IMG/VR virus record: IMGVR_UViG_2910013374_000001 | Location: 42,485 to 106,484 of that record | DNA: 64,000 bases | From: a virus | Taxonomy: Duplodnaviria > Caudoviricetes | Reading direction: 5' to 3' (one strand) | Part shown: positions 24,253 through 64,000 of the stretch, one piece after another | Numbering within the stretch: the first letter of the stretch is position 1 | How the letters are laid out: each line of letters begins with the position of its first letter | Program-made: the position numbers and the translations under genes | Notes under the pieces: generated by a model | Told to the model about the DNA's origin: nothing | The model's input: only the letters and a program-made list of their open reading frames with translations | Database searches by the model: none

Positions 24253-24253
24253 T

Positions 24254-24312
24254 CGAGGTCCTCTCAAAGACAAGATCTGCGCTCATATATGTATCGCCCG
24301 CAGAGCCAAGGG
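24254..24312 (-). repeat. Dispersed 59-bp element, copy 3 (inverted)
   Basis: CGAGGTCCTCTCAAAGACAAGATCTGC-N22-GAGCCAAGGG on + strand. Confidence 0.9.
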
Positions 24313-24347
24313 CTCCGGAACCCTGAACCGACGTGATCGACGGTTCT

Positions 24348-24767: not shown

Positions 24768-24770
24768 TTC

Positions 24771-26987: not shown

Positions 26988-27024
26988 GGACTGGGAACCC
27001 TAGCCGTGATGCCAGGCCCCTTGT

Positions 27025-29466: not shown

Positions 29467-29511
29467 GGGCGTTCGGAACCCTACGGCCGAACACGCGACG
29501 CCCCCCATTCA

Positions 29512-29850: not shown

Positions 29851-29864
29851 AGGAGGGCTGAACA

Positions 29865-30302: not shown

Positions 30303-30583
30303 TGGCGAACGAGATACAAGCTGACCTTTTAGGAGCACTGCTCAACTTTCAAGAGTTGGTCAGGACCGAGGAGGTCGTGAGTGCAAAGGAAGCGGCGCTT
30401 GATGAACGCAAAAGAACTGATGTGACCGGCCGCTGGTGGGGTTACACCGCCGATGGTTCCGGACTGGTTCTTTACAACGGCCAGCTTTATGAAGCCGAGC
30501 TTTTATCCAATACCTGTCGCCCGAAGTACTCACCCGTGAACCTCAGAAGGACACGCCAGGGCAACTTCGTCGATTGGCAATAG
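30302..30583 (+). CDS. Small tail protein sharing its N-terminal helix with the Cys-rich giant
   Basis: DLLGALLNFQELVRTEE vs DLLNDLLRIQGEIRAME; TAATG coupling. Confidence 0.6.
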   Translation: MANEIQADLLGALLNFQELVRTEEVVSAKEAALDERKRTDVTGRWWGYTADGSGLVLYNGQLYEAELLSNTCRPKYSPVNLRRTRQGNFVDWQ

Positions 30584-30619
30584 TCCGGAACCCTACGCCG
30601 ACTCAAGCGGACTCGAGCG

Positions 30620-30838
30620 GTGTCGATCAATAGGCCTGAACTCAAGAACACCATCGGCCATCGGTTCGCGACTGACACCGCCATCGCGTGGCGGACAAAG
30701 AACCCAATTACTGCAAGTCCACCAGACAACGTGCCCCTCTTCCCTGGGCAGTTGATCGCGGTCCGCACTGGACCCGCCAGCTGTGACCTTTACGTGGGAT
30801 CCGACGACCGGTCTCGCTGGTTGAAAGTCGGAGGCTGA
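30620..30838 (+). CDS. Small hypothetical late protein
   Basis: GTG 34 nt after CGGAACCCT. Confidence 0.6.
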   Translation: MSINRPELKNTIGHRFATDTAIAWRTKNPITASPPDNVPLFPGQLIAVRTGPASCDLYVGSDDRSRWLKVGG

Positions 30839-30841
30839 TCA

Positions 30842-38878: not shown

Positions 38879-38914
38879 TGGGTCGGAACACTCAGGCGCT
38901 TCTGACTCGTTTCC

Positions 38915-39475
38915 ATGCAGACCCCTGATTGGACTCACTTCCGCTCAGCGGACACCGACCCCGCCGGCCCCGCATGTCTGCTTGCGACCAGCTTCAGCTT
39001 GAGCGAACTACCTAAGAACTACATCTGGACAATTGGCTATATCGGCCAATGGCTTGGCCCTGAAGAGGCTGAGATCAACGCGCAGGTCAAGTCCTATTCA
39101 AGGGAGTACTTGATCCAGAGGGCTGAGGAGCTTGAGTCCAAAAAGAACGAAGCAGTGCAGAAGCAGCAACAGCTAGAAGCATTGCGACAACAGAGAAACA
39201 GCGAGCTGGACCGCCTCACCAAAGCGAACCTCGGTTTCAAAGATGAAGATGCCATCAAGCAGAGGGTCGAAGCGGGTCCGTTGAAGATGGCTCGAAGCCT
39301 GGTGAAGTCGGCCGCTGACCTGGCGACGGGCGGTGTTACCGATCCAACCGCTCGGATGGAGATCTGCAACACCTGCCCTTTCAAGGGTGACGATCAACGC
39401 TGCGGCAAGTGTGGCTGCTTCTTACCTGCCAAGACCAGGGTCAAGAAATCAAGCTGCCCGATCGGCCGTTGGTAG
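38915..39475 (+). CDS. Protein with C-terminal six-Cys DUF6171-like domain
   Basis: RMEICNTC...CGKCGCF...K......CPIGRW. Confidence 0.72.
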   Translation: MQTPDWTHFRSADTDPAGPACLLATSFSLSELPKNYIWTIGYIGQWLGPEEAEINAQVKSYSREYLIQRAEELESKKNEAVQKQQQLEALRQQRNSELDRLTKANLGFKDEDAIKQRVEAGPLKMARSLVKSAADLATGGVTDPTARMEICNTCPFKGDDQRCGKCGCFLPAKTRVKKSSCPIGRW

Positions 39476-39513
39476 GCGCGGAACCCTAGGCGGATTCTTG
39501 GTTCCAGACGGTT

Positions 39514-47474: not shown

Positions 47475-47508
47475 CCGGAAGCCTAGCGGCGTCTGACGCC
47501 CAGCCTCC

Positions 47509-50500
47509 GTGACTGACTTCATCGCAAGAATCAAGCCGAAGCGTTCGACGGTTTCTGGTGAAGTTCCTGCGCCTACGGATTTAGAGCTGGCGGAGTTAGC
47601 AGTCAATACGGCCGATGGTGTTCTCTTTACCAAGCACACAGATGGAACGATCAAGTCCATCTCCGGCGGAGGTGGAAGCGGTGGTGGCACGATCGAAAGC
47701 ATCGGAAACGTCGAACCTCGGCAGGTTGCCACCAGCTACGCCTCATGGAACAACGGCGAGAGCGCAACGAGTGCCGGTGGGTGGTTTTACGACATCGATG
47801 CAAGTTCTACTCTCACTCTCAACAAGGAAGATGCCAACGGCGACCTCGTTACGCCATACGTCTCAACACTGCCAGCGAGTGGAACGTTTTGGTGGAGTAA
47901 CGACGACATCAACTTCCTTGCGACCGCTTACAGCAACCTGGCAATCAATGGTGCGGCAGGACTGATCACCTTCGACGTCGTCGAACTACCAGGGATTCAG
48001 AGCTCCTCAACGCTTTACGTCGCCTGGGCGGATCCGTACAGCGAATCGGCCAGCTTCGACGGCGATCTCTTGGTGTTCGATGCCACGAAGGGTCAATGGG
48101 TCCCAACGTCTGCAGAGCTAAGCGTCCCGAACAAACTCGTGGACCTGGATGACGTCGATCTGACACCGACTGAGCTTGTCGACGACCTTCCGGTGGTCTG
48201 GGATGGATCGAGCCAGACGTTCAAGGCGGACTTCCCGCTCCTCTCTATTGACCCACAGGAGGGGGCACGTTCATTTGGAGGCAGCCTTGGACTGCTTGGA
48301 CCTTCTACTTTTTACGGAATACCCCAAGACGCAGTGGGGGACGGCTGGACAGACCTGAATTTGACCGGTGATGACCGGTCCCACCGTCTCCAAACCCCAG
48401 CGGATTTAGTCGGTGTCGTGTTCTATGGCAAGCCAATTCCGGCCGAGATTCTCTTCGACACCAATGGGGCCCTTTACTGGGGAGTCAATGCGCAAGAGAT
48501 AAGTTTTATCGGCGGAGGCGACATACGCGACGACGCAGACAGAGGCAGCGAGTTTTTTCTCGCTTTGTGGAGTCAAGACACACAGGCAAGGGCCACGTTT
48601 GAGCAGTTCGATGGAACGACCTGGACCCTTCGACTAGAGCAGCGGCTCCCCTACAACAGCCAAAACGGAGTTCCAGTTGAGGTCAGCTTCAAGACCGATG
48701 GCACGATCAGGGTGATCTATGGCAGCAACAGTGGATCCGACATCCAACTCGGCTCCCGACGCCAGGGAATCGTTATTGATGATGAGCTGATTGTTGGTGG
48801 CTGGAGCTATCAAGGAGATGGTCACCTTGGAAACTTCACTTGGGAGACGTTCAAGATCCTCGGCGGCGGTCGGGGGATAGAAGATCTATCAAACGTCTCA
48901 CGAACACTTCCAGCGCAGGGAGAAGTCCTGCAGTGGGACGAAAACTTTCAACAATTCCGACCCGGTCCGGTCTTAACTCTTAGTGATTCAGCACCTATTG
49001 TCGATCAGTATCACGTTATTGCTGAAGAAGATGTAATAGTTTCCGGCAATATCGACGAAGGCACGTGGGGAATTGATTATGGGATCATCATTTTTGGTAC
49101 GCAAAACCCTTCTATTCCTGTTGATGACCTGAGAAGGTTGCAACCTGGGGACGAACTTACATTCACTAAGGATGGCTTTCCACCTTTCAATGTAAAAGTC
49201 GACCAAGCAGCGCAACCACTTCTATCGTATTCAGATGTTGAGTATGTCGATCTGTTATTACAGGCACCTGCTGAACTTAGTTACGTTGCTGGCGTAGCAA
49301 TCAGTTCCCCTCGGTTTGAGGATGGAGCTACTGACGGACAAGCGACCCAGTACATCCTTCAATGGCACGATTCCGATCAGAAATATAAAACTGCTGAGCT
49401 CCGTTTACCTGAAGCTGCTGTCGGGAGTGTCAACGAACAGACAGGTGAAGTAAGCCTGGGCATCCAGGACATGAATGATGTCTTACTCCCTGGAGGAAAT
49501 CTTTCAGACGGCGACATCCTGAAGTGGAATAACGGACTTCAATCGTTCGTGGGTGCTCAGCTTCCTGAGCCCTCCGTCAATCTCGATGACCTCGAGGACG
49601 TTGATCTCGCCACGACACTTCCAACTGACAGACAGGTGCTGGGCTACGACGCGGCAAGCCAGGGATGGAAACCGCTAACGGTGGCTTTCGATGATGAGAT
49701 AGATGCGATAGAGGCTTGGGTTGAGGCCAAGGGCTATGCAACCGAAACCTGGACCGAGTCTTTCGTTGATGCGCAGGACTTTGCGACCGAGGCTTGGGTT
49801 GATCTATGGCTTCTGGCGAAGAACTACGCGACGAAGACCTGGGTTACAGACAAGAACTACGCCGCCCAAGTCTGGGTCGAAAATAAGAACTACGCCACAG
49901 AGTCTTGGGTTGAAAATAAGACTTATGCAACAGAGGCCTGGGTTGAAGAAAAGAGTTATGCAACAGAGGTCTGGGTTGAAGAGAAGAGTTATGCAAGCGA
50001 GACCTGGGTCGAAGAGAAGAGTTACGCCACGGAGACCTGGGTCCAAGCAGAGATCCAGGCAGAGATTGGAGCGCTTCAAGCTGAGGTTTTAACCCTGCAG
50101 GACCAGCTCGAAACCAAGATCGACCCAGCCCCGCAAGACGGATCTGCTTACGTTCGTCAGGACGGACAGTGGCTCAGCCTCGCTGGAGTTCTTGCTGCTC
50201 TTGGCTTCCAGCCCGGTGGCGGTGGAGGTCCTCAGACGCCAGACGTCCCTGAAGTCATCAATGGCGGTGACTTCTCAACCGGTGCTGCTGGAAGTGTCGA
50301 CCTGACTCTTGCTGGTGGCAACTTCACGACAGGATCAGCTGGCAACAGTGACGCGACCCTCGACGGAGGCAACTTCTCTGGCGGCACCGTGACCGCTTCT
50401 GGTGGTGACTTCACGACTGGCGCGGCTGGTGGTATCGATGCGAGCTACGGCGGTGGGGACTTCAGCAGCGGAGCCCCTGGCCAGTCCAATGTGACTCTCG

Positions 50501-51345
50501 ACGGCGGTTTCATCTCGCCTGACATTCTTGAGGAAACTCTCAGTGGCGGCGACTTCACCAGTGGAGTCGGTGGAACCGACGACAGGTCCTTCGGTGGCGG
50601 CGACTTCCGCAGTGGTCAGTCCAGTGGTTCGGATGAATATCTCGACGGTGGAGTCTTCTCTTCAGGTAGCGGTGGCCCCTCTTTCGGCGGCGGCGACTTC
50701 GGATCCGGTGGTTCTGGTGGGCCCGACGTCACTCTGAGCGGTGGCAATTTCTCGAGCGGAGAATCAGGCTCGACCGATATCACCCTTGATGGCGGAGTCC
50801 TCGATGGTGGTGGATTGCTGGCTGGTGGCGGTGACTTCATCAGCGGCGGATTCGGTGGTCCTGACATCACTTATGGAGGCGGCGACTTCTCAGCCGGTGG
50901 TTCTGGCTCTGAGGACGTGACTCTTGATGGAGGCTTCTTCGAGGGTGATGGCCTGACGACCGGTGGCGGCGACTTCACTGCTGGTGGATCCGGCGGCCCC
51001 GATGTGACTTACGGAGGCGGTGACTTCTCGACCGGAGGCCCTGGCTCTGGTGATGTGAACCTTGATGGTGGTGACTTCGGCGGCCCTGAAGCAAGCGGCG
51101 GTGACTTCACTTCCGGCCAATCCGGTGATGACAACTCAACCTATGGAGCCGGAGACTTCTCGACCGGAACATCCTCGGGAGAGTCAGTGACCATGGATGG
51201 TGGCGACTTCACCGCTGAGGGTGGTGGCGACTTCACGAGCGGCGGAGCGGGTGGAGCTGATGTGACATTTGGGGCTGGCGACTTCACTTCCGGCGAGTCA
51301 TCTGGAGCCGCTGTCGAAATGGATGGAGGCGACTTCAGCAGCTGA
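47509..51345 (+). CDS. Tail fibre with YATExWV hendecad repeats and 24 C-terminal GGxF motifs
   Basis: Repeats read directly from the translation. Confidence 0.82.
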   Translation: MTDFIARIKPKRSTVSGEVPAPTDLELAELAVNTADGVLFTKHTDGTIKSISGGGGSGGGTIESIGNVEPRQVATSYASWNNGESATSAGGWFYDIDASSTLTLNKEDANGDLVTPYVSTLPASGTFWWSNDDINFLATAYSNLAINGAAGLITFDVVELPGIQSSSTLYVAWADPYSESASFDGDLLVFDATKGQWVPTSAELSVPNKLVDLDDVDLTPTELVDDLPVVWDGSSQTFKADFPLLSIDPQEGARSFGGSLGLLGPSTFYGIPQDAVGDGWTDLNLTGDDRSHRLQTPADLVGVVFYGKPIPAEILFDTNGALYWGVNAQEISFIGGGDIRDDADRGSEFFLALWSQDTQARATFEQFDGTTWTLRLEQRLPYNSQNGVPVEVSFKTDGTIRVIYGSNSGSDIQLGSRRQGIVIDDELIVGGWSYQGDGHLGNFTWETFKILGGGRGIEDLSNVSRTLPAQGEVLQWDENFQQFRPGPVLTLSDSAPIVDQYHVIAEEDVIVSGNIDEGTWGIDYGIIIFGTQNPSIPVDDLRRLQPGDELTFTKDGFPPFNVKVDQAAQPLLSYSDVEYVDLLLQAPAELSYVAGVAISSPRFEDGATDGQATQYILQWHDSDQKYKTAELRLPEAAVGSVNEQTGEVSLGIQDMNDVLLPGGNLSDGDILKWNNGLQSFVGAQLPEPSVNLDDLEDVDLATTLPTDRQVLGYDAASQGWKPLTVAFDDEIDAIEAWVEAKGYATETWTESFVDAQDFATEAWVDLWLLAKNYATKTWVTDKNYAAQVWVENKNYATESWVENKTYATEAWVEEKSYATEVWVEEKSYASETWVEEKSYATETWVQAEIQAEIGALQAEVLTLQDQLETKIDPAPQDGSAYVRQDGQWLSLAGVLAALGFQPGGGGGPQTPDVPEVINGGDFSTGAAGSVDLTLAGGNFTTGSAGNSDATLDGGNFSGGTVTASGGDFTTGAAGGIDASYGGGDFSSGAPGQSNVTLDGGFISPDILEETLSGGDFTSGVGGTDDRSFGGGDFRSGQSSGSDEYLDGGVFSSGSGGPSFGGGDFGSGGSGGPDVTLSGGNFSSGESGSTDITLDGGVLDGGGLLAGGGDFISGGFGGPDITYGGGDFSAGGSGSEDVTLDGGFFEGDGLTTGGGDFTAGGSGGPDVTYGGGDFSTGGPGSGDVNLDGGDFGGPEASGGDFTSGQSGDDNSTYGAGDFSTGTSSGESVTMDGGDFTAEGGGDFTSGGAGGADVTFGAGDFTSGESSGAAVEMDGGDFSS
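49735..50046 (+). repeat. ~33-bp coding tandem repeats (YATETWVEEKS)
   Basis: About nine imperfect copies. Confidence 0.85.
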
Positions 51346-51346
51346 T

Positions 51347-51405
51347 CGAGGCCCTCTCAAAGACAAGATCTGCGCCCGTACATGAAACGGGTGCAGAACC
51401 AGAGG
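51347..51405 (-). repeat. Dispersed 59-bp element, copy 4 (inverted)
   Basis: CGAGGCCCTCTCAAAGACAAGATCTGC-N22-GAACCAGAGG on + strand. Confidence 0.9.
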
Positions 51406-51444
51406 TTCCCGGAACCCTGACTGCGAAACCACAGCGTCACCCCG

Positions 51445-53142
51445 ATGCCAGTCCCCTCCCCACGCTCGAAGCTGCTGCCCGCACGGGGTAACGCAGCCGA
51501 TCTACTTGCCAATGTCTCCGCCCTTGTCGAGGGTGAGATCTGTTATGCGATCGACGAAAATTCCTACTACCAGAAAGTCGGCGCCTCCCTCGTAAAAGTT
51601 TCAGGCGGATCAGGATCCGGAACTTCTTACGACGACACCGCTCTTGCTGGTCGCGTGACAACGGTCGAGGGAGAGGTTGATGCTCTTGAGACAACCGTTG
51701 CTGGGCTCTCCAGCTATGACGACACCGCTCTTGCTGGTCGCGTGACGACTGTCGAAGGCGACGTTGATGCCCTGGAGACCACCGTTGCTGGGCTCTCCAG
51801 CTATGACGACACCGCTATCGACGGCCGTGTCACTCAACTCGAATCAGACGTCTCTGGTCTGAGTGCCTACGACGACACTGCACTGGCTGCTCGCGTGACT
51901 CTCGCCGAGAGCGACGTCGATACTCTCGAGACCGACGTCGATACTCTCGAGACCGATGCAACTGCGTTGGCTGCTCGCGTGGCTCTCGCTGAAGGTGAAA
52001 TCACCGACATCAAAGCCGATGCGCTCACCACGGCTGCAATCGACACAACTCAACAGTTAGCTCTGAATGATCTAGGCCCCCGAGTCACCACTCTTGAGAG
52101 CTCTACATATAACGGCCCCACCATCAGTGGTGACTTCGGAATAGCAACCGGGACCGCAGCCTTCGCTCCGGGGGATGGGAGTGTCCTCACCTTTACTGCG
52201 ACGGGCGATCAGTTTCACACTTTTACTGTGGGAAATACATACCCTCAAGGCGGGGTATCCGGAACTACTTGGGCATTGGACAACGGGAGTGTTTTCTATG
52301 GCTTGAATGAACCCACGATTCCTGTCGATGATCTAAGAAGATTGCAAGTTGGGGACGAGGTTACATTTATCATCCCTGGAGAATCAGTTCCTTTCACGGC
52401 TACAGTTACCCAATCAAACACAACAGCCACTTCTGAGATTGAGTACTTAATCCTGGGCTTACAAAATCCTGCCGGTACGAGTTTTATACCTGGGACAACA
52501 ATCAGTTCTCCAAAGTTTCAGGATGGAATCACCGAAGGCCTTTACTTCCCTGCGCCCTCTAGCTCTTCCCTCAGCTCCCTGACCGATGTTGATGCACTCA
52601 CTCCATCGGATGGCAATGTTCTCGCTTACAACAACACAGCCGGTAAGTGGGAGCCAACTGCACCAGCAACCGGTGGCGGTTCCGGTGGAGAGATCACTGG
52701 TCAATACAACATCGACACCGGCATCGCTGAAGCTCCTCCCCAGGAAGGACAAGTGCTGACCTGGAATGAGTCCGCCGGCTACTACTTGCCATCGGCTCCT
52801 TCCGGCGGCGGCGGCGGATCCTCGACCGTGACCGGTGACATCGAGATCGATCAAGGAATTGCGGCGTCCTCTCCGCAAGCAAATACCGCGTTGATGTTCA
52901 ACGCGATTGCAAACAAATTCATCCCTAGTGAGACATTCCGAATCGTTGGCATCGCACTGACTTTTGCCGACACATCAGCGAAACCAATATGGGAAGATCC
53001 CGGCACCGTTGGTGATGTTTTCATCGACGCTTACGACTGGACGATGGTCATCTACACCGGTCCGTTTGATCCGAACGAGGGCGCTGGTGGCTGGCTTCAG
53101 ATCGATATGAACCAATCGGGTGGCGGTGGAGGCCTTGCCTGA
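51445..53142 (+). CDS. Tail fibre with YDDTALAGRVTTVE coiled-coil repeats
   Basis: N-terminal RG...L.EGEI.Y..D domain; 87-bp near-perfect duplication from 51628. Confidence 0.8.
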   Translation: MPVPSPRSKLLPARGNAADLLANVSALVEGEICYAIDENSYYQKVGASLVKVSGGSGSGTSYDDTALAGRVTTVEGEVDALETTVAGLSSYDDTALAGRVTTVEGDVDALETTVAGLSSYDDTAIDGRVTQLESDVSGLSAYDDTALAARVTLAESDVDTLETDVDTLETDATALAARVALAEGEITDIKADALTTAAIDTTQQLALNDLGPRVTTLESSTYNGPTISGDFGIATGTAAFAPGDGSVLTFTATGDQFHTFTVGNTYPQGGVSGTTWALDNGSVFYGLNEPTIPVDDLRRLQVGDEVTFIIPGESVPFTATVTQSNTTATSEIEYLILGLQNPAGTSFIPGTTISSPKFQDGITEGLYFPAPSSSSLSSLTDVDALTPSDGNVLAYNNTAGKWEPTAPATGGGSGGEITGQYNIDTGIAEAPPQEGQVLTWNESAGYYLPSAPSGGGGGSSTVTGDIEIDQGIAASSPQANTALMFNAIANKFIPSETFRIVGIALTFADTSAKPIWEDPGTVGDVFIDAYDWTMVIYTGPFDPNEGAGGWLQIDMNQSGGGGGLA

Positions 53143-53166
53143 TCTCGGTCTGAACTGAACAGTTTT

Positions 53167-53193
53167 GGCTTCGCTTCGGCGGGGCCTTTTTTT
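53167..53193 (+). terminator. Intrinsic terminator
   Basis: GGCTTCGC-TTCG-GCGGGGCC + T7. Confidence 0.8.
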
Positions 53194-53237
53194 GTGCCTG
53201 CAGTCCGGAACCCTAGGCCGCTTCTGCCAGCCCAGCC

Positions 53238-54308
53238 GTGACCCTTTTCATTGGAGAACAGTCGACTACAGGCTTGAACCTGTACGACGGCGACCCGACT
53301 GAATTGTCAGTCTGGGGCTGGGTAAACGATCGGCTGATCGACTGGCTGGGAGAGATTTGCGACCCCCAATTTGGGGCAATCACCAATGCCGGGTCGGGGT
53401 ATATCGACGGCGTCTACACCGAAGTGGAGTTGCGGAGAACGGCTTCGACTCAGACTGGTGGCAACCACATGCTTTGCACAGTCACTATCGCTGGCGGCGG
53501 TGTGAGTGATGTGCAGATCTCCCAAAAGGGCAACGGATTCAAGACTGGAGACGAGCTGAATATCCCGAACGTTGCACAGGTCGGAGGAAGCGGCTCTGGC
53601 TTCACCATTGTTCTCGATTCTGCGAATGCAAGCCTCGGCTTCATTTATGACGTCACCAGAGCTGGAACAGATTCCTTGAAGGGATTCATGTTTGGAGCAG
53701 AAAGGCAAAACAGCTATAACCGAGGACTCTTTTACTACAAAACAAGCAACACATCAAGCACCCGAGTCTATGATTTTAGATCCCACACTCCAGGCACATC
53801 AAATAACAACTACGGCTCTTTTGACGTAAATAGCAACCCGATTATAAATACATATCACGACGGCGATGGAGACGGATACGCTGTTCGTGTTGCTTATTCC
53901 ACAGAGCCAGATGATCGTTGGTTCGTCATGACAGATAATGCTTACTTCAGCCATTTTGAGTTGTTCGAGACGCTTCAACCTGCAGGGGGTGTCTATGCAG
54001 ATTCAGCGGTTGCCTCTAGATGGTGCTGGGGAATTGGTACTACCACTATGACAATGTATCCATTGATCGGTGTCGACAAAGACAGGGAATTGTTTGGCTA
54101 TTCAGAGCATAGTCCTAGGAGATCAGCAGACGATGATGTGCTCTTTACTGGCCAGGCTGTCTATGGAGATTCCTATGTAGTTGGCATCATGCCGCCAGGG
54201 CTTGGATACCACAAAGCTTTCGGCGGAAGCTTTAGTAAGCAACTTCAAAACAATACCGAAGTTTGGGATGTCTTTGGTCAATGTCTCTTCGCGAGGACTT
54301 CAAAGTGA
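53238..54308 (+). CDS. Putative receptor-binding/structural protein
   Basis: GSGY.DG.Y..V...GG.V..V.I...G.G...GD.L domain like the tail-tube extension; AT-richer 3' half. Confidence 0.6.
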   Translation: MTLFIGEQSTTGLNLYDGDPTELSVWGWVNDRLIDWLGEICDPQFGAITNAGSGYIDGVYTEVELRRTASTQTGGNHMLCTVTIAGGGVSDVQISQKGNGFKTGDELNIPNVAQVGGSGSGFTIVLDSANASLGFIYDVTRAGTDSLKGFMFGAERQNSYNRGLFYYKTSNTSSTRVYDFRSHTPGTSNNNYGSFDVNSNPIINTYHDGDGDGYAVRVAYSTEPDDRWFVMTDNAYFSHFELFETLQPAGGVYADSAVASRWCWGIGTTTMTMYPLIGVDKDRELFGYSEHSPRRSADDDVLFTGQAVYGDSYVVGIMPPGLGYHKAFGGSFSKQLQNNTEVWDVFGQCLFARTSK

Positions 54309-55198
54309 GTATTACTTTTGACTACCTCAACTACAGGAACTCAATCTCGAATGCGTTCGATCCATCTACCGAGTGGTTTTCTTTTCTGGCGGTAAAGCTC
54401 GCCGATTGGGCTGGAAAAGTCGGTCCAAACAAGATGGAGCTGCTCACCGGTGTTCAGCAATGGCAGGAAAGCGGTTATGACTGGGGGTCCACCTCTTCAA
54501 ACCTTTCTATTCAGTTGGCTTTTAAGATGGACGATGAGCGAGATGGCAGTTTCTCTCAGCCTTACTGGAGCTCACTGAGATGGATGGCAGGGAATAACTG
54601 GTATTTTTATTGCTTCGCAGAAAAGATCAATAAGAACAGTTCTCGCGACACTTATGGAAAGTTTTTTACCACTGACTCAGACCAGCTCGGATCAAGTTAT
54701 CAGCATTTTTATGGACCGAATGTGACTCAGGGCTATCAACTCGCCGTTTGCTATTCAGATACGCCTGGCAAAGAATTCTTTGCGATCAGCGATAGTCAAA
54801 GTTCGTCCTCAATCTTTGGGTTGAATTGTGTCATAGCAAAGACGGAACCTCGACCAGGCCTCACTCCTGGACACAACCAGGGCTGGGCTGTGTTCAGCGG
54901 AAACAACGCTTTCACCTGGGGGTTGAATCAATTCAGCGAACGATATTCACCCCTCTCAGGTGGAGTCGATCCCTGGGGCAGCGTTGGCAGCGGAGGCACA
55001 AACCCAGATATACCTTACTTAAAAATAGACCCACCTGTTTACAGTTATACAAACAATTGGGTGGCAAATTCCAAAACAGTTAGTTACTCGAATGTTGCTG
55101 GAAAATCACTAAACGTGGTCCAGATTCCTGATGGTCGTCAGTTCATGACCTGGAGAAATGGGTTGGTCATCGATGTCACTGGTGAAGGGATTCTCTGA
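54305..55198 (+). CDS. Hypothetical structural protein (AT-richer)
   Basis: GTGA coupling at 54305; aromatic/Ser-rich. Confidence 0.6.
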   Translation: MSITFDYLNYRNSISNAFDPSTEWFSFLAVKLADWAGKVGPNKMELLTGVQQWQESGYDWGSTSSNLSIQLAFKMDDERDGSFSQPYWSSLRWMAGNNWYFYCFAEKINKNSSRDTYGKFFTTDSDQLGSSYQHFYGPNVTQGYQLAVCYSDTPGKEFFAISDSQSSSSIFGLNCVIAKTEPRPGLTPGHNQGWAVFSGNNAFTWGLNQFSERYSPLSGGVDPWGSVGSGGTNPDIPYLKIDPPVYSYTNNWVANSKTVSYSNVAGKSLNVVQIPDGRQFMTWRNGLVIDVTGEGIL

Positions 55199-55821
55199 TG
55201 GCAGCTGATCCTGTTCAAGCGATCGTCGACTTCAGCACTTCTGTGCAAAGTATTCGCGTCATCGCTCCATTCAAGAAGTTCCTTCCCATCCCAGGACAGC
55301 TCCTCGTGAATCCTGCTGTGCCTCCACTCCTGACGAAAGACTTTCGACGTGGGGTGATCTCTTCAGTGCATCCAGGTCCTTATGTAGGAACGCAAGTTAT
55401 TCAACAAGTCGACGTCAGTCAGACATCTCCTCTCGGTCGTTTCAGAGGTGAGGTCCATGCAGGTCCCTCCCCCTATCAGTTAAACGGCCGCCCAGGGACT
55501 CCGTCTATTTCGCTCAAGGGATCTTGGAATCAGCGATACATCGACCAAGAGACGATGTGGTCCGCAGCGGTTCTCATCAGTGAAGATGACCTTCACCCAC
55601 TGACGGCGGTTGAGTACTACACGGACAACGACTTTTATCTGATAAATACTGACTTCGGTACTCAGTTCAGGTCTGTCTCACCCTTGATTGCTGGTGATGT
55701 TCTCCAGGAAGTCTGCGCAAGCGTGAACAACCCCTATCTCAACCCAATCTTGAGAGGTGAAGGTGGCAATGGTGGATCAGTTCGCCCAGACGACGGCCTG
55801 CTTTATCCCCGCAAGGTGTAA
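55198..55821 (+). CDS. Hypothetical structural protein
   Basis: TGATG coupling; ends RP..GLLYPR. Confidence 0.6.
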   Translation: MAADPVQAIVDFSTSVQSIRVIAPFKKFLPIPGQLLVNPAVPPLLTKDFRRGVISSVHPGPYVGTQVIQQVDVSQTSPLGRFRGEVHAGPSPYQLNGRPGTPSISLKGSWNQRYIDQETMWSAAVLISEDDLHPLTAVEYYTDNDFYLINTDFGTQFRSVSPLIAGDVLQEVCASVNNPYLNPILRGEGGNGGSVRPDDGLLYPRKV

Positions 55822-55881
55822 CGGTTCGAATCGGAACACTCGGACGCAACTTTCAACGGGGAGTGATTCCCTGTTCGCCCT

Positions 55882-56619
55882 ATGTCCGAAGAACTCACTC
55901 CGCAGACCTCCGAGACGGAGATTCCAGTAGGCGGCGATGTTCAAGCCGAAACTTCTGCCGCAGAAGCGCAGAAGAGCTACAGCGAGAACGAAGTCCAAGA
56001 TCTTCTCAAGGCACTCAAGTCTGAGCGGGAAGCCCGCAAGCAGAACGAGAAGAGCCTCAAGGAATCAAAGTCTCAACTCGCACAGCTCGAGGGCATTGAT
56101 CCCGAGACCTATGCCCGTCTCCAAGCTGAGTCCGCCAAGCGTGCAGAACTTGAAGCAGAACTGGCCGGCAAGGTCGGAGCCATCGAGAAGAGCTACGCCG
56201 ATCAGCTCAGTGCAGCTAAGACCGAACAGGAAGCGGCTGCAGTTCAGGTTCACGAGCTGCAGAAGAAGTATGCGTTCGAAAGAGCCTTCTCTTCAGCCGG
56301 TGGTCGAGGTGGTGAATTCACCGATTTGGCATACACCAAGCTCCAGGCCGAATTCAAGCTGATGGATGACGGGACTGTCGCCGTTGTCGATAAGGCTGGA
56401 GCCTTCGTCGTTGATGACAAAGGCAAGCGCGTTGATCCTGCTGAGCACCTCAAGCAGTACAAAGGCCACCAACTGTTGGGCTACACCTTCCAAGCAGAAC
56501 GCGGTGCTGGCAGCGGTCTTGTTCCTCACCCAGGAACATCACTTGCCAACGGTGCAGACATGCACAGCTTGTCTACTTCGGAGCTGTTCGGCCAAGCCTT
56601 CGGACGCAAGGTCGTCTGA
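55882..56619 (+). CDS. Capsid scaffolding protein
   Basis: LKALKSER coiled coil, GAGSG tail, immediately upstream of capsid gene. Confidence 0.78.
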   Translation: MSEELTPQTSETEIPVGGDVQAETSAAEAQKSYSENEVQDLLKALKSEREARKQNEKSLKESKSQLAQLEGIDPETYARLQAESAKRAELEAELAGKVGAIEKSYADQLSAAKTEQEAAAVQVHELQKKYAFERAFSSAGGRGGEFTDLAYTKLQAEFKLMDDGTVAVVDKAGAFVVDDKGKRVDPAEHLKQYKGHQLLGYTFQAERGAGSGLVPHPGTSLANGADMHSLSTSELFGQAFGRKVV

Positions 56620-56643
56620 TCTCAGGTGACAACTGACAACACC

Positions 56644-56671
56644 GGCTCCGCTAAGGCGGGGCCTTTCTTTT
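56644..56671 (+). terminator. Intrinsic terminator
   Basis: GGCTCCGC-TAAG-GCGGGGCC + T-rich tail. Confidence 0.75.
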
Positions 56672-56790
56672 GCTCGGAACCCTTAGGGAGAAGCCCCCGG
56701 AAGGCGTGAAGTCCGAAGGGTGGCCAAGACAAAGGGGCGCGAGGCCTCGGCGTCTGAACCCTCCCCATCCTTCATTTACAGAACCTAAAA

Positions 56791-57723
56791 ATGGCTCTAA
56801 CCCTTCTTGAGGCGTCTAAGCACGCCCGCTCTCCTGAGGAACTCGCCGTTGTGCGCGAACTCGCCGAAGGCGACCTCCTCGGTTCACTCCCATTCAGAAA
56901 TATCTCAGGCTCCGGCTTGTTTTGGAAGCGTGAAGAAAGCCTGGCGAACGTCGGCTTCCGTCACATCAACCAAGGCCTTGCTGAGGACTACGGTCAGACC
57001 AGTCAGCAGTCAGAAGCCCTCAAGTTCTTTGGTGGCGACGTGGTTGTTGACCGCGCCATCCTCGAGCTTGAAGGACCTGAAGCTCGCGCCTATCAGGTGC
57101 AGTCCAAGATCCGCGCAATGCGCATGGCTTACGAGCGCGTGTTCATCAAGGGATCCGAGACAGCTTCAAACGGCCTCGAGTTCGACGGCCTTGAGAAGCG
57201 CTGCGGCGAAATCGGTGGCACCAGCCAAGTCGTCGACAACGGCGGCGGCGGTCTCAGCTTTGCTGCTCTCGACGAAATGCTCGACACCGTCGACGCACAA
57301 GGCGGCAGCAAGTACATGATCATGTCGAAGGCAATGCGCCGTCGTCTGACTCAAGCCGCACGCGATGGCGTGATCAACGGCGGAATCCAGATCATGCAAG
57401 ACGCCATGGGTCGCAAGCAGTCCTACTACCAGGACACCCCGATCATGATCGTCGACAAGGACGAGAACAACAACGACATCCTCGGCGCTAACGAAGCAGC
57501 CGCTGGAAACGGTTTGACCTCCTCCATCTACTGCATCAGCTTCGGCGATCTCTTGACCGTCGGCATCCAGAACGGCGGCCTGTCCGTCCGTGACTTGGGT
57601 GAGTCCCACTCCGCTCCTCAGTTCCTGACACGCGTCGAGTGGTACTGCGGCCTGGCAACCATCAACGGCCGCTCCGTTGCTCGCTTGGCCTCCATCGATC
57701 CTGCTGTCGCAGCAATCGTCTGA
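56791..57723 (+). CDS. Major capsid protein (HK97 fold)
   Basis: LTLLEA...LPF...GGDVVVD...EFDGL...RVEWYCGLA...ARL pattern; follows scaffold. Confidence 0.88.
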   Translation: MALTLLEASKHARSPEELAVVRELAEGDLLGSLPFRNISGSGLFWKREESLANVGFRHINQGLAEDYGQTSQQSEALKFFGGDVVVDRAILELEGPEARAYQVQSKIRAMRMAYERVFIKGSETASNGLEFDGLEKRCGEIGGTSQVVDNGGGGLSFAALDEMLDTVDAQGGSKYMIMSKAMRRRLTQAARDGVINGGIQIMQDAMGRKQSYYQDTPIMIVDKDENNNDILGANEAAAGNGLTSSIYCISFGDLLTVGIQNGGLSVRDLGESHSAPQFLTRVEWYCGLATINGRSVARLASIDPAVAAIV

Positions 57724-57789
57724 TCTAGGTGATCACGTCCGGGGCTGACGCACAGCCCCACACCATCCCCTTTCTCTAGGACTTCCATC

Positions 57790-58113
57790 ATGGCTGCACG
57801 TTCCAGCGGCATGTTCCCCCGCAAGGCTGCGTGGGTTGACGCCGCAACAATCATCCCCGCTAACGGCGACGCACTAACCGTCCCCAACCTTCAGCACTCC
57901 GGCGAAGTGACCCTGATCGCTTACTTCAGCAACGACGCTGTCGGATCTGTTGCTGTGACTCTCGGCTCCGAGGTCATCACATTGTCCGCTGCTGATCAGA
58001 GCGACAAGAAAGTCATCAAGGTTCGCTCCGGTTACGAGCTGGGCCCTGTGACCTCCGTGTCTGCTGACTACGCCGGCCTCACTGCTGGCACCGCTCAGGT
58101 ATCCATCTTCTGA
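57790..58113 (+). CDS. Putative capsid decoration/cement protein
   Basis: Small beta-rich ORF after capsid, followed by terminator. Confidence 0.55.
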   Translation: MAARSSGMFPRKAAWVDAATIIPANGDALTVPNLQHSGEVTLIAYFSNDAVGSVAVTLGSEVITLSAADQSDKKVIKVRSGYELGPVTSVSADYAGLTAGTAQVSIF

Positions 58114-58135
58114 TCTCAACGATCAGTTCGAACAC

Positions 58136-58159
58136 AGGGCTCCTCAGGGGGCCCTTTTT
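58136..58159 (+). terminator. Intrinsic terminator
   Basis: AGGGCTCC-TCAG-GGGGCCCT + T tract. Confidence 0.75.
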
Positions 58160-58196
58160 CATGCTCGGAATCCTGGGTGGCTTACGACACTTCACC

Positions 58197-58514
58197 ATGT
58201 CAACCGTTTTTATCTATGACCTGGAGAGTGGCAAAGGCCACAAGGTCTACCCCGCTTCTGTTCAGGCCTTCCTAGCCACTGGCCGCTACAGCCTGGACAA
58301 ACCAGCCAACGGCAAACTCGACGATTCTGCCTTCCGTTCTGAGCTTCCTTCTGCCGGCCGTGAAGCTGAGCGTCCTCGCCCTGCTGACATCGCCATGGCT
58401 GCCAAGAATGTCGAGGCAAAAGTTGAGGAGAAGACTGAGGAAGTCAAAGAGATCCTCGAAGAAAGCAGCAAGCCAGAGGCTAAGCGTGCCCCTCGTCGTC
58501 GCAGTGCTGAGTGA
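58197..58514 (+). CDS. Hypothetical late protein
   Basis: ATG 31 nt after CGGAATCCT. Confidence 0.6.
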   Translation: MSTVFIYDLESGKGHKVYPASVQAFLATGRYSLDKPANGKLDDSAFRSELPSAGREAERPRPADIAMAAKNVEAKVEEKTEEVKEILEESSKPEAKRAPRRRSAE

Positions 58515-58584
58515 TCTAGAGATCCAGTAACTATCTAGGGGGTCGTTTTTCGGGAAACCTGAAGTGTCAGGCACTTGGTTCCTC

Positions 58585-58890
58585 ATGTTTCCCGAAGCTC
58601 TCGCTGGTGTGTTGATCCCCCTCGTCCTCGGATGGATGGGTTTCACCTGGAAGAGGACTGACCGTGCCCTCGATTCTGTCGAGCGTGTCTCTGACAAGAT
58701 CGACAAAGTTGAACTCAAAATGGCCGAGAACTTCGTGACTAAAGCCGATTTTCATCTCTCAATCGAGCGGATGATGAAAGGCATCGATCGCCTTGACAAG
58801 AAAACTGATCTTTTGGTGTTTGATCAATCAACCACCATCAGAGAACTCAAAAGCAGACTCCGCAATCACGGAGAAGACGCAGAAGTCTGA
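58585..58890 (+). CDS. Putative holin/antiholin-like protein (N-terminal TM plus coiled coil)
   Basis: Single TM, directly upstream of endolysin. Confidence 0.55.
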   Translation: MFPEALAGVLIPLVLGWMGFTWKRTDRALDSVERVSDKIDKVELKMAENFVTKADFHLSIERMMKGIDRLDKKTDLLVFDQSTTIRELKSRLRNHGEDAEV

Positions 58891-58928
58891 TTGTCGGAAC
58901 CCTGCCCCGTCACTGAACGAGGGAGTCC

Positions 58929-60194
58929 ATGGCCCGCAGAATCTGCGCGGAAGCCATCAGCCTGATCAAGTCCTTTGAAGGACTGTCGCTGGAGGCTTAT
59001 CCGGACCCTGGTTCAAAAGATGGGTTGCCATTCACCATTGGATATGGACACGCCGGCCCTGACGTCTACCTAGGCGATGCCATCACCGAGGAAGAAGCAG
59101 AAGAGCTACTTCGACAGGACCTGCTCAGGTTTGAGGCGGGAGTCGAGGAGCTGATTCCTGGCCTTTGCAAACATGAATTCGAAGCGTTGGTGAGCTGGGC
59201 TTTCAACGTTGGACTGGGAGCAGTTGCTGAAAGCACTCTTCGTCGAAGGATCCTCGCGGGAGAGCCTCATCACGCGGTGATTGCCCAAGAGCTTCCTCGA
59301 TGGAACAGAGGCGCCGATGGAGTCATGGCTGGACTCGTACGCCGCAGGATTGCCGAAGTTGACCACTCTGCCCTCAGCGGTAGCACGTGCCCCCACGCAG
59401 CGCCAATCAGGACAAAGATGACACCAAGCACCTCTCAAGCCACTAAAGCGGCTTCTGAGGCCTCTCAAGTGGCTCTGGTCGACTTCTTCCGTTACTTCAT
59501 CGGCACAGAGGCGCAGGTCTCTGCTGTCGAAAGCCTTGAGAAAGCTCTGCAAGCCAAAGCCCCTGATCTCCTACTGGACATCGCTGACTGGGTGATCAAG
59601 TACAGGGAGAAAGACGTTGAAGAGGACGCCACCACGCCAGTCGTGAACAACCATCTTGACGTTTCATACCTTTATCAGTTCGACAGCAACAGCGACCAAG
59701 GCGCACGGATGTGCTTCAGCTCTTCCAATGCAATGTTGCTCGAGTTCTTGCGTCCTGGGATTCTCAAAGGAGTTCAGGAAGATGACGCTTACCTGGACAC
59801 AGTTCTTGAGTTTGGTGACACCACGAGCGCGGATGCACAGATCCAGGCTCTCAAGTACTACGGCGTCAACGCTGCCTTCAGGACTGACGGCACCAGTCGT
59901 CTCGCGAAAGACCTGATTCGCCGCAACATCCCTGTCCCTGTGGGAGTTCTCCATCGAGGCCATGTCTCGGAACCGACTGGAGGTGGCCACTGGATCGTTT
60001 TGGTCGGCTTCGATGACACCGAGAAATGCTGGTACGCGCACGACCCAGCAGGCGAAATGGACGTCGTGAATGGGTCTTATGTGCGCAGCGGACCATCCGA
60101 TGGACGCTTTGTCAAATACTCCTACAAGAACCTGAACCCGCGCTGGATGGTGGCAGGAGAAGGGGATGGCTGGCTGATTGAGGCAAGGCCATGA
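58929..60194 (+). CDS. Endolysin: GH24 lysozyme fused to a C39-like cysteine peptidase
   Basis: FEGL.LEAYPD...TIGYGH...FNVG...RW...GL.RRR; Q...MCFSSS...GHWIVLVG...HDP. Confidence 0.87.
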   Translation: MARRICAEAISLIKSFEGLSLEAYPDPGSKDGLPFTIGYGHAGPDVYLGDAITEEEAEELLRQDLLRFEAGVEELIPGLCKHEFEALVSWAFNVGLGAVAESTLRRRILAGEPHHAVIAQELPRWNRGADGVMAGLVRRRIAEVDHSALSGSTCPHAAPIRTKMTPSTSQATKAASEASQVALVDFFRYFIGTEAQVSAVESLEKALQAKAPDLLLDIADWVIKYREKDVEEDATTPVVNNHLDVSYLYQFDSNSDQGARMCFSSSNAMLLEFLRPGILKGVQEDDAYLDTVLEFGDTTSADAQIQALKYYGVNAAFRTDGTSRLAKDLIRRNIPVPVGVLHRGHVSEPTGGGHWIVLVGFDDTEKCWYAHDPAGEMDVVNGSYVRSGPSDGRFVKYSYKNLNPRWMVAGEGDGWLIEARP

Positions 60195-61157: not shown

Positions 61158-61231
61158 GCCTCCATAGCTCAGCCGGTTAGAGCGACGGATTCATAGCCCG
61201 TAGGTCGCCTGTTCAAGTCAGGCTGGAGGCA
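61158..61231 (+). tRNA. Phage-encoded tRNA-Met (CAT), elongator type
   Basis: Acceptor GCCTCCA/TGGAGGC+A, D arm, anticodon arm ACGGA-TTCATAG-CCCGT, T arm GCCTG-TTCAAGT-CAGGC. Confidence 0.92.
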
Positions 61232-61241
61232 TTCTCACCGG

Positions 61242-62687
61242 TCAGTCCTCGTCCTCCTGGAGGGCGTCGATCATCTTTTTCTGCTTAGCACTCTTCCTCT
61301 TTTCCTTCTCCAGCTCTTTCTCCAGCTCCTCCAGGCGTTGCATCACAGCAGCTTGCTGAGGATCGACGGCTGAGGTTGGCTCTGGCTGGACTTCCTCCGA
61401 AGGGATATTCATCGAGGCCTGCAGCGCATCTTTGTCGTCTTGTTTTGCCTCGAGCTGATTCTCGAGCCATGCCTGCATACCCGCGAGCCCCCTTTCCGCG
61501 TTGATCCATCTCAAGTAGATGCGCTCGTGCACTTCAACCCCGTGCCCCATCCACTTTGACTGGATTGTCATAGGAACATGAAAGGTGGTCGAGTGGACGC
61601 TGCATCGGATCGCGTAGGTGTGGCGCAGGTCATAAGGACGCACCCAGTCCTGGCCTTTGCCAACCTTCAGATCACAGAAGAGTTGCTGAGTGCCACGCAT
61701 CGTGAATTGCTTGTAGAGATAGTGACCCAGGTCATCGTTATTGACCGGAACAGTGATCTCGTTTGCCTGCCCTTCATTTTTGACGACGCCCCACTGGACC
61801 TTCCATCGATCTCTCAACTCTGACTGATACTTTTCAAAGTTCTTTTTGAGCTGGAAATCTTCAACCCACTCGGCCGGGACAGGTGGTGCATGGTGAGTTC
61901 GTGTCTTTGTAAGTAAGGCTTGGCCAGCGTCATTCGCGTCTGGTCCTCCAGGAACAGTCAGCCATCCCTTCTCATCAATCCCTGTTACATGCCACAGCTC
62001 GTGTGGCCTCAGTCCGTAGGTCGCGAGCATCCCGTAGACCCATTGCTCGAAATGGTCGAGCCCCTTCAACCAGGACTCGATTTCAGAATCTGTAGGGATG
62101 ACCCTGATTTTGTTTTTCTGAGCTTTCGCAACTTTTGCGGCTGAACCCGTTGGCCTCTTGGCCTTCACGGCCGCGAGAGCAATCGTTAGGTCAATCTTCT
62201 CGTAGGACTTCTGAATTTGTGCGAGCACATCAACGCGTTTGTTGAACCGAGGGAGCTGCTCAATCGGATCGACTTCTAAGACCCAGTCCTTCAAGGACAT
62301 CGCATTGACGGTTCCTTCCCACTTGCAGATCTCCTGCCCAAGAGCTGACTCGAGGTGACTTCGCGAACCCTTCTTTGGAATTCGCTTGCGAACGTCCTCT
62401 AAAGCTGCCGAGCAAAGAGCAGCCCAGGAACCTGCTGGCGCTTCCGAGCGCTGATCATCAATCCACTCTCCTTCCTTGTTTGATTCAAGGCACTTTGAAT
62501 GTGCAACGCGCACGTCATCATCGTCACGCCACTGAAGAGGCTGAAGAGAGAACTCGCGCACGACCTTGGTTCCTTCGTACTCACGAATGCGAATGAACTT
62601 GATCGATGAGATTTTGCGCAGACGAAAGCGAGAACCAGCGAGCCTCAGATCTGCTTGAAGTCGATTCCAAAGGGATTGAGATTCCAT
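61242..62687 (-). CDS. int: Tyrosine recombinase/integrase
   Basis: YGLRPHE, YDLRHTYA, MGH...HERIY catalytic motifs; adjacent to att junction. Confidence 0.92.
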   Translation of the reverse strand: MESQSLWNRLQADLRLAGSRFRLRKISSIKFIRIREYEGTKVVREFSLQPLQWRDDDDVRVAHSKCLESNKEGEWIDDQRSEAPAGSWAALCSAALEDVRKRIPKKGSRSHLESALGQEICKWEGTVNAMSLKDWVLEVDPIEQLPRFNKRVDVLAQIQKSYEKIDLTIALAAVKAKRPTGSAAKVAKAQKNKIRVIPTDSEIESWLKGLDHFEQWVYGMLATYGLRPHELWHVTGIDEKGWLTVPGGPDANDAGQALLTKTRTHHAPPVPAEWVEDFQLKKNFEKYQSELRDRWKVQWGVVKNEGQANEITVPVNNDDLGHYLYKQFTMRGTQQLFCDLKVGKGQDWVRPYDLRHTYAIRCSVHSTTFHVPMTIQSKWMGHGVEVHERIYLRWINAERGLAGMQAWLENQLEAKQDDKDALQASMNIPSEEVQPEPTSAVDPQQAAVMQRLEELEKELEKEKRKSAKQKKMIDALQEDED

Positions 62688-62917
62688 GGAGAAGCGAGAA
62701 GAGAAATGCGCCGACTGGTCTCATGCGTCTCCATTTGAGACGGCTTTTTCGGGCTTTGCCTGGTTAGGTCGGTGTACCTGAAAATAGCAATGTGGGGGTC
62801 TTCGTGGGCATCAGTGGTAAGACTGAACACCTCTCGAAAAACGTGAGATCAACTGCGCTTACTGCAGTGTTCCAGTTGTGACAGGGGATCTCAGCGATTC
62901 GACTCGATACAGCAGCC

Positions 62918-62960
62918 GGGGTTATGAATCCCACGCTCTAACCAGCTGAGCTACCGAGCC
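62918..62960 (-). pseudogene. 5' half of host tRNA-Met (CAT), interrupted at prophage att site
   Basis: GGCTCGGTAGCTCAGCTGGTTAGAGCGTGGGATTCATAACCCC then no pairing T arm and no CCGAGCC acceptor strand. Confidence 0.85.
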
Positions 62961-62995
62961 GTAACTTTGAAATTTTAGACGATCGCCTGGACGTC

Positions 62996-64000
62996 TTAAG
63001 CCCGACGACGTGCTGGAAGCTTTGCCATTGGATCTAATGCTGAACCACCGCGTTGGCGTATTTCGAAATGCAGATGAGGTCCAGTGCTTCTTCCAGTACT
63101 GCCCATGAGTGAGATTTTTACTCCCTGGGGAATGATCTGTCCTTTGCGAACCAGTAGACGGCTGTTGTGGGCGTAGCGGGTGGATGAACCGTCGGAGTGA
63201 GCTAACTCCACCAAATAACCGTATCCGCTACTCCAGCCAGAAAATTTCACGACGCCATCTCTGGCCGCAACAATTGGGGTGCCAACGTTGTTTGCAATAT
63301 CGATGCCCTTATGCATGCGGCCCCACCTCCATCCGAAACCCGAGGTAAATACTCCTTTTGTGGGCCACATGAAGGATTGATTCCCAACGGCACCACCATC
63401 CTCCATTCCAGGCAATGGGGGTAGAGATGGAAAACTTGCGCCGCCTGAAACCGTTGGGCGAATCGCCAACAGGGCCCGCGGTGAAGCTTTGGCAACTCGC
63501 ACTTCGCTGCCGATGGTCAAACGGGCTAGATCTAGACCGGGATTAAGCGAGCGCAATTCACTCAAGCTGAGCCCTTGGTCTCGCGAAAAGGTCGAGAGAG
63601 ATTCGTTCGCTTTGATGCGAACAACGGATTGTGGATCTGGAGGAGATTGAAGAGGTGCCTTATGGAGAATCGTTGATCCGTCAAGACGGCTTGTATTTGC
63701 GAGGCTTTCCTCAGCGTCAGCAGGGAGGACAATCCATGAACCAGCCTTGAGCGCTTCAAAGGATGTCTGGTCGTTAAGAGCGGTTAAATCAGATGAGGTA
63801 AGGCCAAGATCCGCGGCTATACCTTTAAGAGTGCTCTTCGTCGAGACCTTCACCCAAATCCTGCTTTGAGTTGCTGGTGCCGATGCCAGAAGAAATGGGA
63901 CCTGTACGTGCTCAGCGTCCGCGAAGCCTGGATGCTGCGCCAGAACAGATAAAGACGTTCCTGAAGCGATTGCCGTGACGAGAACGAGAAGGGGCTTCAT
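62996..64000 (-). CDS. Host LysM/M23 family peptidoglycan endopeptidase (NlpD-like)
   Basis: Signal peptide, LysM-like segments, HKGID and HLHFE zinc motifs. Confidence 0.92.
   Translation of the reverse strand: MKPLLVLVTAIASGTSLSVLAQHPGFADAEHVQVPFLLASAPATQSRIWVKVSTKSTLKGIAADLGLTSSDLTALNDQTSFEALKAGSWIVLPADAEESLANTSRLDGSTILHKAPLQSPPDPQSVVRIKANESLSTFSRDQGLSLSELRSLNPGLDLARLTIGSEVRVAKASPRALLAIRPTVSGGASFPSLPPLPGMEDGGAVGNQSFMWPTKGVFTSGFGWRWGRMHKGIDIANNVGTPIVAARDGVVKFSGWSSGYGYLVELAHSDGSSTRYAHNSRLLVRKGQIIPQGVKISLMGSTGRSTGPHLHFEIRQRGGSALDPMAKLPARRRA

Follow-up and report, generated by a model that had tools for sequence, protein, structure and literature searches.

Probable tRNA-dependent lysogeny in a P-SS2-like Synechococcus prophage that splits a host tRNA(CAT) gene and carries a tRNA of the same class beside its integrase

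The DNA described here, hereafter the window, comprises the last 64 kb (64,000 nucleotides) of a 106,484-bp virus record (IMGVR_UViG_2910013374_000001) and ends in a junction, attL, at which a prophage interrupts a tRNA gene of its bacterial host with the anticodon CAT, while a complete tRNA(CAT) is found on the phage side. Both ends of the record coincide exactly with gene starts, the ATG of a host peptidase gene forming its final three bases, which suggests that the provirus record was trimmed out of a larger host contig. From this peptidase gene inwards there follow a 5' fragment of the host tRNA gene, a phage attachment arm (P' arm), the integrase gene (int), the complete tRNA and an excisionase-like gene (xis), beyond which the rest of the prophage extends (Table 1). 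The complete tRNA is convergent with int and lies 10 nt past the int stop codon and 57 nt after the stop codon of xis, and int itself begins 230 bp from attL.

Table 1. Position of the features in the window and the basis on which each was assigned
Feature	Position	Strand	Basis
Rest of the P-SS2-like prophage within the window	1..60194	+	PHROG and Pfam matches
Excisionase-like gene (xis), 72 aa	60882..61100	+	phrog_539 excisionase, 1.2e-6
Conserved leader, putative promoter of the phage tRNA	61083..61157	+	91% identical to L074
Complete elongator-type tRNA(CAT), 'type D'	61158..61231	+	ARAGORN; Rfam 63 bits, model positions 1-71
Tyrosine integrase (int), 481 aa	61242..62687	-	phrog_1 integrase, 4.8e-9
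Phage P' arm, core to int	62688..62917	-	88% identical to L074, homologous to L127
Inferred common core ATTCATAACCCC, at most 12 bp	62918..62929	-	attL (window)/attR (L074) overlap compared with attB (L001)
Host elongator-type tRNA(CAT), 5' 43 nt, bacterial side of attL	62918..62960	-	identity to intact tRNAs
Promoter-like site of the host tRNA gene, TTAAGA-16-TAAAAT	62972..62999	-	consensus scan, 9/12 matches
Host LysM-M23 peptidase gene	62996..64000	-	Pfam Peptidase_M23 3.8e-34, LysM 1.5e-9

Orthologues of the peptidase gene were found on 557 Synechococcus/Cyanobium stretches, the closest being those of Synechococcus sp. AG-683-A03 (locus L001, 91%) and of the metagenome-assembled genome (MAG) ChBW.bin.23 (locus L074, 93%). 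Among 80 peptidase loci fetched for comparison, a tRNA(CAT) lies downstream of the peptidase gene in ~ 75, and in ~ 60 (Synechococcus/Cyanobium) it has one and the same sequence, termed type A; this conserved host gene would be the attB of the prophage. The fragment at attL spans the acceptor 5' strand, the D arm and the anticodon arm to four bases past the loop and, read from 62960 to 62918 on the minus strand, is identical at 43/43 positions to intact type A tRNAs (L001, L016, L026, L030 and L073). From base 62917 on the window departs from the host tRNA, and the phage DNA that follows lacks a T arm and an acceptor strand. ARAGORN makes no call on the fragment, and its Rfam score of 25.8 bits is below the gathering score of 29, the T arm being absent. 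A preliminary description of this DNA had already placed the end of the host 5' half at 62918, without a restored T arm or acceptor strand, and the comparison with intact genes confirms this. A search tolerating up to 5 errors found no host tRNA 3' half on the whole 106,484-bp record, attR being located outside it. At the same host locus, marine subcluster-5.1-type genomes (L003, L006, L008-L014, L017 and L019) have the tRNA inverted relative to the peptidase gene, ~ 70-110 bp after it and with another acceptor stem (type C), and no integration remnants were seen beside this inverted tRNA. Other lineages have types B and D.

Given that the record is a trimmed piece of a provirus and that both tRNAs share a D arm, the host-phage junction might be thought an assembly chimera, an explanation that is hardly credible. 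Indeed, the junction is 1.7 kb away from the shared tRNA sequence and the same junction recurs in MAG locus L074 and in two independent metagenome assemblies (L127 and L128), hence it is not an assembly artefact; furthermore, L074 holds both junctions with syntenic host flanks. As a separate observation, the TCGAGTC of the P' arm (62901-62907, minus strand) can pair with the acceptor 5' strand into a T-arm-less tRNA-like fold scoring 25.8 bits. With odds of arising by accident estimated at ~ 8% and no conservation in L074, this fold was discarded as probably due to chance.

The complete tRNA (61157-61232, plus strand, as called by ARAGORN) is the only one that ARAGORN calls in the window and on the whole record. 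As the preliminary description had stated, it lies between xis and int and has a TTCATA loop and an A.C pair at the base of that loop. It shares with the host tRNA the CAT anticodon, the UUCAUA start of the loop and the A31.C39 pair, and the D arms are near-identical with one D-loop base differing. All 74/74 positions match the tRNA of L127 and also the native tRNA at the orthologous locus of Synechococcus sp. ARS1019 (L025), a free-living strain in which type D is the sole tRNA of its class, behind a native-looking promoter; the type D sequence can thus serve alone. The leader upstream of the phage tRNA contains a 44-nt block fully identical to L074, can be aligned to the part of L025 that holds the native TAAAAT promoter, and may function as a promoter. 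The phage collection contains no isolate with a close copy of this tRNA, and scanning viral and metagenome contigs for exact patterns of the tRNA, the P' arm and the attL/attP junction gave no match or only chance 18-mers. On the antisense strand, the tRNA (61158-61232, minus) matches Rfam RF04354 (Plastid-ycf2 5' untranslated region) at 43.7 bits; as this model is essentially the reverse complement of plastid trnI-CAU, the match is a tRNA-derived cross-hit and not an untranslated-region element.

The second junction can be seen in L074. This locus aligns with the window through the peptidase gene, attL, int and the phage tRNA to window position 61083, from which the match continues directly in the opening 543 bp of the record; ~ 255 bp further the host tRNA reappears, as a copy that begins in the anticodon loop and runs to the 3' end, and after it come host genes in synteny with L001. 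It is a relic from which ~ 103 kb of prophage has been deleted and, given its layout, the attR of the prophage in the window is expected outside the record, ~ 255 bp to its left. That the other prophage end should show an orphan 3' half and a shared core had been anticipated, and both are present in the relic. Its attR consists of a phage arm and an orphan 3' half that has decayed; the phage contributes no 5' half there, and ARAGORN calls no tRNA. The int gene of the relic is a pseudogene (start codon lost, two in-frame stops, one frameshift) and its host tRNA halves are mutated, with 8/43 changes in the 5' half and ~ 10/43 in the 3' half of a type A sequence that is otherwise invariant across genera. 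Meanwhile, its phage tRNA is 73/74 identical to the copy in the window, compared with 88-89% for the neighbouring int gene and P' arm, and this phage-type tRNA is the only tRNA of the class found in the MAG. The earlier suggestion that the phage tRNA complements the broken gene in trans, making the lysogen dependent on it, is thereby supported indirectly, since in the relic this tRNA has outlasted the decay of int and of both host halves; the relic also adds natural evidence for the domestication of a phage tRNA. The intact fragment of the window (43/43) and the decayed one of L074 probably go back to separate integration events. Besides int, the only prophage gene surviving in the relic, in degraded form, is the record's first gene (C1:1-288; L134 1-288, plus strand), which adjoins attR and encodes 95 aa matching phrog_31413 (unknown function).

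Positions 4237-4248 of L001 are present at both junctions, so that the common core comprises at most ATTCATAACCCC, and within it the 7 bp CATAACC are common to every att site of this integrase family; the crossover itself would take place in this core. The integrase is 31% identical to that of cyanophage P-SS2, and its residues R227, K261, R355, H382/H387 and Y391 are invariant across 18 homologues, while it has no Pfam match at E<=0.01 and no PDB sequence match. A search of viral contigs for loci related to this integrase found nothing. Between core and int, the P' arm contains no tRNA 3' half: its similarity to 3' halves does not exceed that of shuffled sequences (p 0.02-0.94, 12 comparisons), and the idea that it is itself a decayed 3' half was rejected. 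Both phage tRNAs, the one common to the window and L127 and the different one of L137, read CATAGCC where the core reads CATAACC, a difference that could keep the integrase off the phage's own tRNA gene. Fifteen small genomes of the same family (L150-L164; 1.6-1.7 Mb) have a native tRNA of the same class with a CATAGCC loop, which would not match the CATAACC core.

On the other side of the core, the P arm of the L074 relic carries the motif GATGGGGAGGGGG, as do those of P-SS2, L131, L137 and L088. In all P-SS2-family att sites examined it stands on the P-arm side, 55-90 bp from the core (L074 3113-3125; P-SS2, L081, ~ 6641-6653; L131 ~ 5536-5548; L137 ~ 245-257; L088 ~ 150-163) and is a candidate arm-type or accessory-protein site. 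A second sequence, CTGGTTAG, or its complement recurs in att arms (window 62760-62767, minus strand; L137 265-272, 474-481 and 497-504) and matches tRNA D-loop sequence; it is possibly an arm-type integrase site or a D-loop mimic.

Related integrases fall into two designs. Integrase P0002 (55% identical), found in L127 and L128 from two assemblies, is preceded by a type A 5' half broken after TTCATAACC and followed by a convergent tRNA identical to the phage tRNA of the window. Integrase P0023 (37% identical) occurs on two free-phage-like contigs, L137 and L138, in the order P-arm motif, CATAACC core without a tRNA 3' half, int, and a convergent tRNA abutting the int stop codon, which is elongator-type and of a different sequence. 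These integrases and that of the window form one clade with support of 99/98, and the module of int and a convergent tRNA is linked to this clade in the sequences compared. Integrases outside the clade (P-SS2, L129, L130, L133 and L140-L147, the latter being eight further genomes among 301 searched) restore the host tRNA, and no tRNA gene lies past their int. Those of the Cyanobium/Synechococcus islands and prophages L129, L130, L133 and L140-L147 belong to the same integrase family (38-47% identical; L129 41% over its full length, its clade grouping with P-SS2 in the tree) and use the same host tRNA gene, with int downstream of the tRNA and in the same orientation as in the window; however, their tRNA is intact, a terminator hairpin precedes int and no tRNA follows it. 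L131 is a free-phage attP with a tRNA-fMet 3' half, and the tRNA that ARAGORN calls upstream of its int was rejected, being this 3' half with a spurious 5' part. In Synechococcus sp. ARS1019, an orphan tRNA-fMet 3' half behind a P-SS2-type P arm (L088; G004:C15, ~ 150-300) is found in addition to an intact tRNA-fMet; this half and arm resemble an attR of the restoring design, belonging to a P-SS2-like element.

These comparisons bear on whether the broken tRNA is accidental, the prophage being defective and the break resulting from aberrant or secondary-site integration or from later decay of attL. Integration at secondary sites does occur with tyrosine integrases and is reported for tRNA-defective mutants in PMC10865867. 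Against such an accident, the junctions fall in the same anticodon-loop core, within 2 bases, in three assemblies and in diverged phages, and the intact window fragment (43/43) set beside the decayed one of the relic argues for separate events; moreover, the attP of the free-phage-like L137 also lacks a 3' half, and all main modules of the prophage have long intact open reading frames. We consider an accidental break highly improbable.

To count the tRNAs available to a host, CAT tRNAs were identified by a pattern scan followed by ARAGORN in five related genomes: the relic MAG, AG-683-A03, WH 8017 (complete), ARS1019 and C. gracile UHCC 0139. Each has exactly three, namely an initiator (1:72 mismatch and GGG/CCC stem), an Ile2-like tRNA (CUCAUAA loop) and one of the peptidase-locus class. 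The disrupted class is single-copy in 5/5 related genomes, the attR and the host genome of the window itself lying outside the record, and another intact elongator tRNA-Met, which the preliminary description had named as counter-evidence, was seen in none of the five, including the one complete genome. Many phages carry tRNA genes, and the tRNA in the window could be an accessory one serving codon usage or counter-defence, its adjacency to int being coincidental, with another tRNA or a rebuilt gene at attR supplying the class; the position of attR and of the host genome beyond the record leaves room for this. It is nonetheless very unlikely, since each of the five related genomes has one class member and the attR of the relic has no 5' half, the linkage of tRNA and int is kept across integrases 37-55% identical while restoring relatives have no tRNA after int, and the tRNA of the relic is preserved amid decay.

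As to the amino acid, comparison of loop and stem makes the class elongator Met with good probability, the UUCAUA loop with U32 being that of plastid and Bacillus elongator tRNA-Met. The same mechanism could also operate with a tRNA-Ile2, whose CAU is modified to lysidine. ARAGORN does not separate the two, the phage tRNA read antisense scores 44-45 bits on the Rfam model that corresponds to plastid trnI-CAU in reverse complement, and in Escherichia coli BLAST matches the host type best to a prophage tRNA carrying the annotation tRNA-Ile. However, these BLAST and Rfam Ile2 matches fall in generic D-arm, T-arm and acceptor sequence, and it is in the other non-initiator CAT tRNA, the Ile2-like one, that the 11-nt anticodon arm of plastid trnI-CAU in the Rfam consensus, AACUCAUAAUU, is found, which makes an Ile2 assignment unlikely. 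The argument for replacement is independent of the elongator Met label.

Taken together, the prophage in the window probably represents tRNA-dependent lysogeny by a P-SS2-like temperate cyanosiphovirus. The integrase would recombine a short core of attP, at most ATTCATAACCCC, with the single-copy host tRNA(CAT) at its anticodon loop; as a tRNA 3' half is missing from attP, integration cuts the host gene in two and leaves an orphan 5' half at attL and an orphan 3' half at attR. The prophage tRNA, with its own upstream region, would then be expressed and take over decoding in the lysogen, in which it may be essential. Precise excision by Int and Xis would rebuild the host tRNA gene, and any other loss of the prophage would have to keep the phage tRNA, as in the L074 relic. 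Several observations weigh against this proposal: a second tRNA of the class, or a gene rebuilt at attR, is possible in the window's host outside the record; a consensus scan finds no clear sigma-70 promoter upstream of the phage tRNA; Rfam together with the E. coli BLAST matches and their annotation gives no decisive answer between Met and Ile2; and the relic comes from a MAG, in which a few point changes could be assembly noise.

The break may also affect the expression of int. As had been proposed, the host tRNA promoter would now face int: the predicted sigma-70-like TTAAGA-16-TAAAAT (62999-62972, minus strand) points through the tRNA fragment towards this gene and may act as a promoter. 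There is no terminator-like site between the fragment and int on the minus strand, hence read-through into int is possible, while restoring relatives have a GC hairpin and a T run directly after the tRNA. That the host tRNA promoter drives int is plausible and would fit the sequence. The P' arm includes a terminator-like hairpin with a T run in the opposite orientation (62726-62742, plus strand), between the int start and attL, which would halt transcripts running antisense through int, such as those coming from the phage tRNA.

The remainder of the record is consistent with a complete-looking P-SS2-like siphovirus prophage of ~ 105 kb in a Synechococcus host, extending to the left end of the record (C1:1). 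Within the window it encodes the tape measure protein (2154 aa), fibres, scaffold, major capsid protein (56791-57723) and lysozyme (58929-60194), and C1:1-42484 encodes RecT, DnaB, primase, a sigma factor, exonuclease, TerL, RNR and portal (PHROG/Pfam). Long intact open reading frames are present for all main modules, and the genes stand in P-SS2 order, from RecT through portal, tape measure, fibres, scaffold, capsid and lysozyme to excisionase and integrase. The excisionase-like product also matches Pfam DUF1233 (putative excisionase) at 2.1e-4, just under the Pfam cut-off. The scaffold/capsid region has 67% nucleotide identity with P-SS2, and over window positions 56100-64000 the phage collection gave matches only to P-SS2 (67% nucleotide identity) and Synechococcus siphoviruses. 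P-SS2 (NC_013021; Sullivan et al. 2009, PMC2784084) is of the same size (107.5 kb against 106.5 kb for the record) and has a like order of capsid, lysozyme, xis, int, attP, RecT and helicase/primase; its attP, upstream of int, has the shared 7-bp CATAACC, and its P arm the GATGGGGAGGGGG motif. However, its attP carries part of an initiator-type CAT tRNA, from the anticodon stem to the 3' end, which restores the gene, whereas the attP of the window's prophage carries none, and P-SS2 has no tRNA gene between xis and int. The P-SS2 paper (PMC2784084) and the tycheposon preprint describe the restoring design only.

tRNA-dependent lysogeny was defined and genetically proven in mycobacteriophages in 2024 (Guerrero-Bustamante & Hatfull, PMC10865867). 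Its actinobacteriophage examples are Fionnbharth K4, Cluster L, Gaia X and Gordonia CQ2/DL; they too are mixed with restoring relatives, and the prevalence of the mechanism elsewhere was left open. Common to that system and ours are a tyrosine integrase by the att site, an attB in a tRNA gene, a short core, no functional tRNA at attL and a phage tRNA of the same class, which in Gaia is likewise downstream of int. The actinobacteriophage system is experimentally proven, while ours concerns a cyanobacterium and an unrelated 105-kb P-SS2-like siphovirus and is read from sequence. The targets in Table 2 of that paper are Lys-TTT, Ile2-CAT and Leu-CAA, without an elongator-type tRNA(CAT), and a relic with a retained phage tRNA, such as L074, is not described in the sections of it that were consulted. 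Unrebuilt host tRNAs with a cognate tRNA carried by the prophage are also reported for Lactobacillus johnsonii prophage Lj965 (cited in PMC10865867) and for Mesorhizobium-phage-like prophages of Sinorhizobium (cited in PMC12429752), whose hosts and phages are unrelated to ours. In the literature searched, no report of tRNA-dependent lysogeny in cyanobacteria was found. With features that match those given in PMC10865867, the mechanism is not new and the case adds cyanophages to it; as the mechanism is published, the finding is less novel than the preliminary description assumed.

The case nevertheless would put tRNA-dependent lysogeny into an unrelated and ecologically weighty phage-host pair. 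The integrase, attP and tRNA gene could serve as a Synechococcus integration vector, as proposed for mycobacteria.

To our knowledge, marine and estuarine picocyanobacteria have long been regarded as having few intact prophages or none, and a complete-looking 105-kb prophage with attL, int, xis and a complementing tRNA would offer a concrete system of cyanobacterial lysogeny. The relic suggests that a phage copy can permanently take the place of an essential host tRNA gene. It is possible, though we hold it rather doubtful, that tRNA-dependent lysogeny leaves permanent tRNA replacements in picocyanobacteria, repeated events explaining types A-D and the inversion. If so, the phage tRNA would remain the only elongator tRNA-Met of a host after decay of the prophage, as in MAG ChBW.bin.23, and repeated replacement could explain the differences in acceptor stem and orientation at this locus (types A-D, inverted in subcluster 5.1). 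Likewise, a phage equipped with a whole tRNA would not need to match the acceptor stem of its host, which may widen the range of hosts that it can lysogenise.

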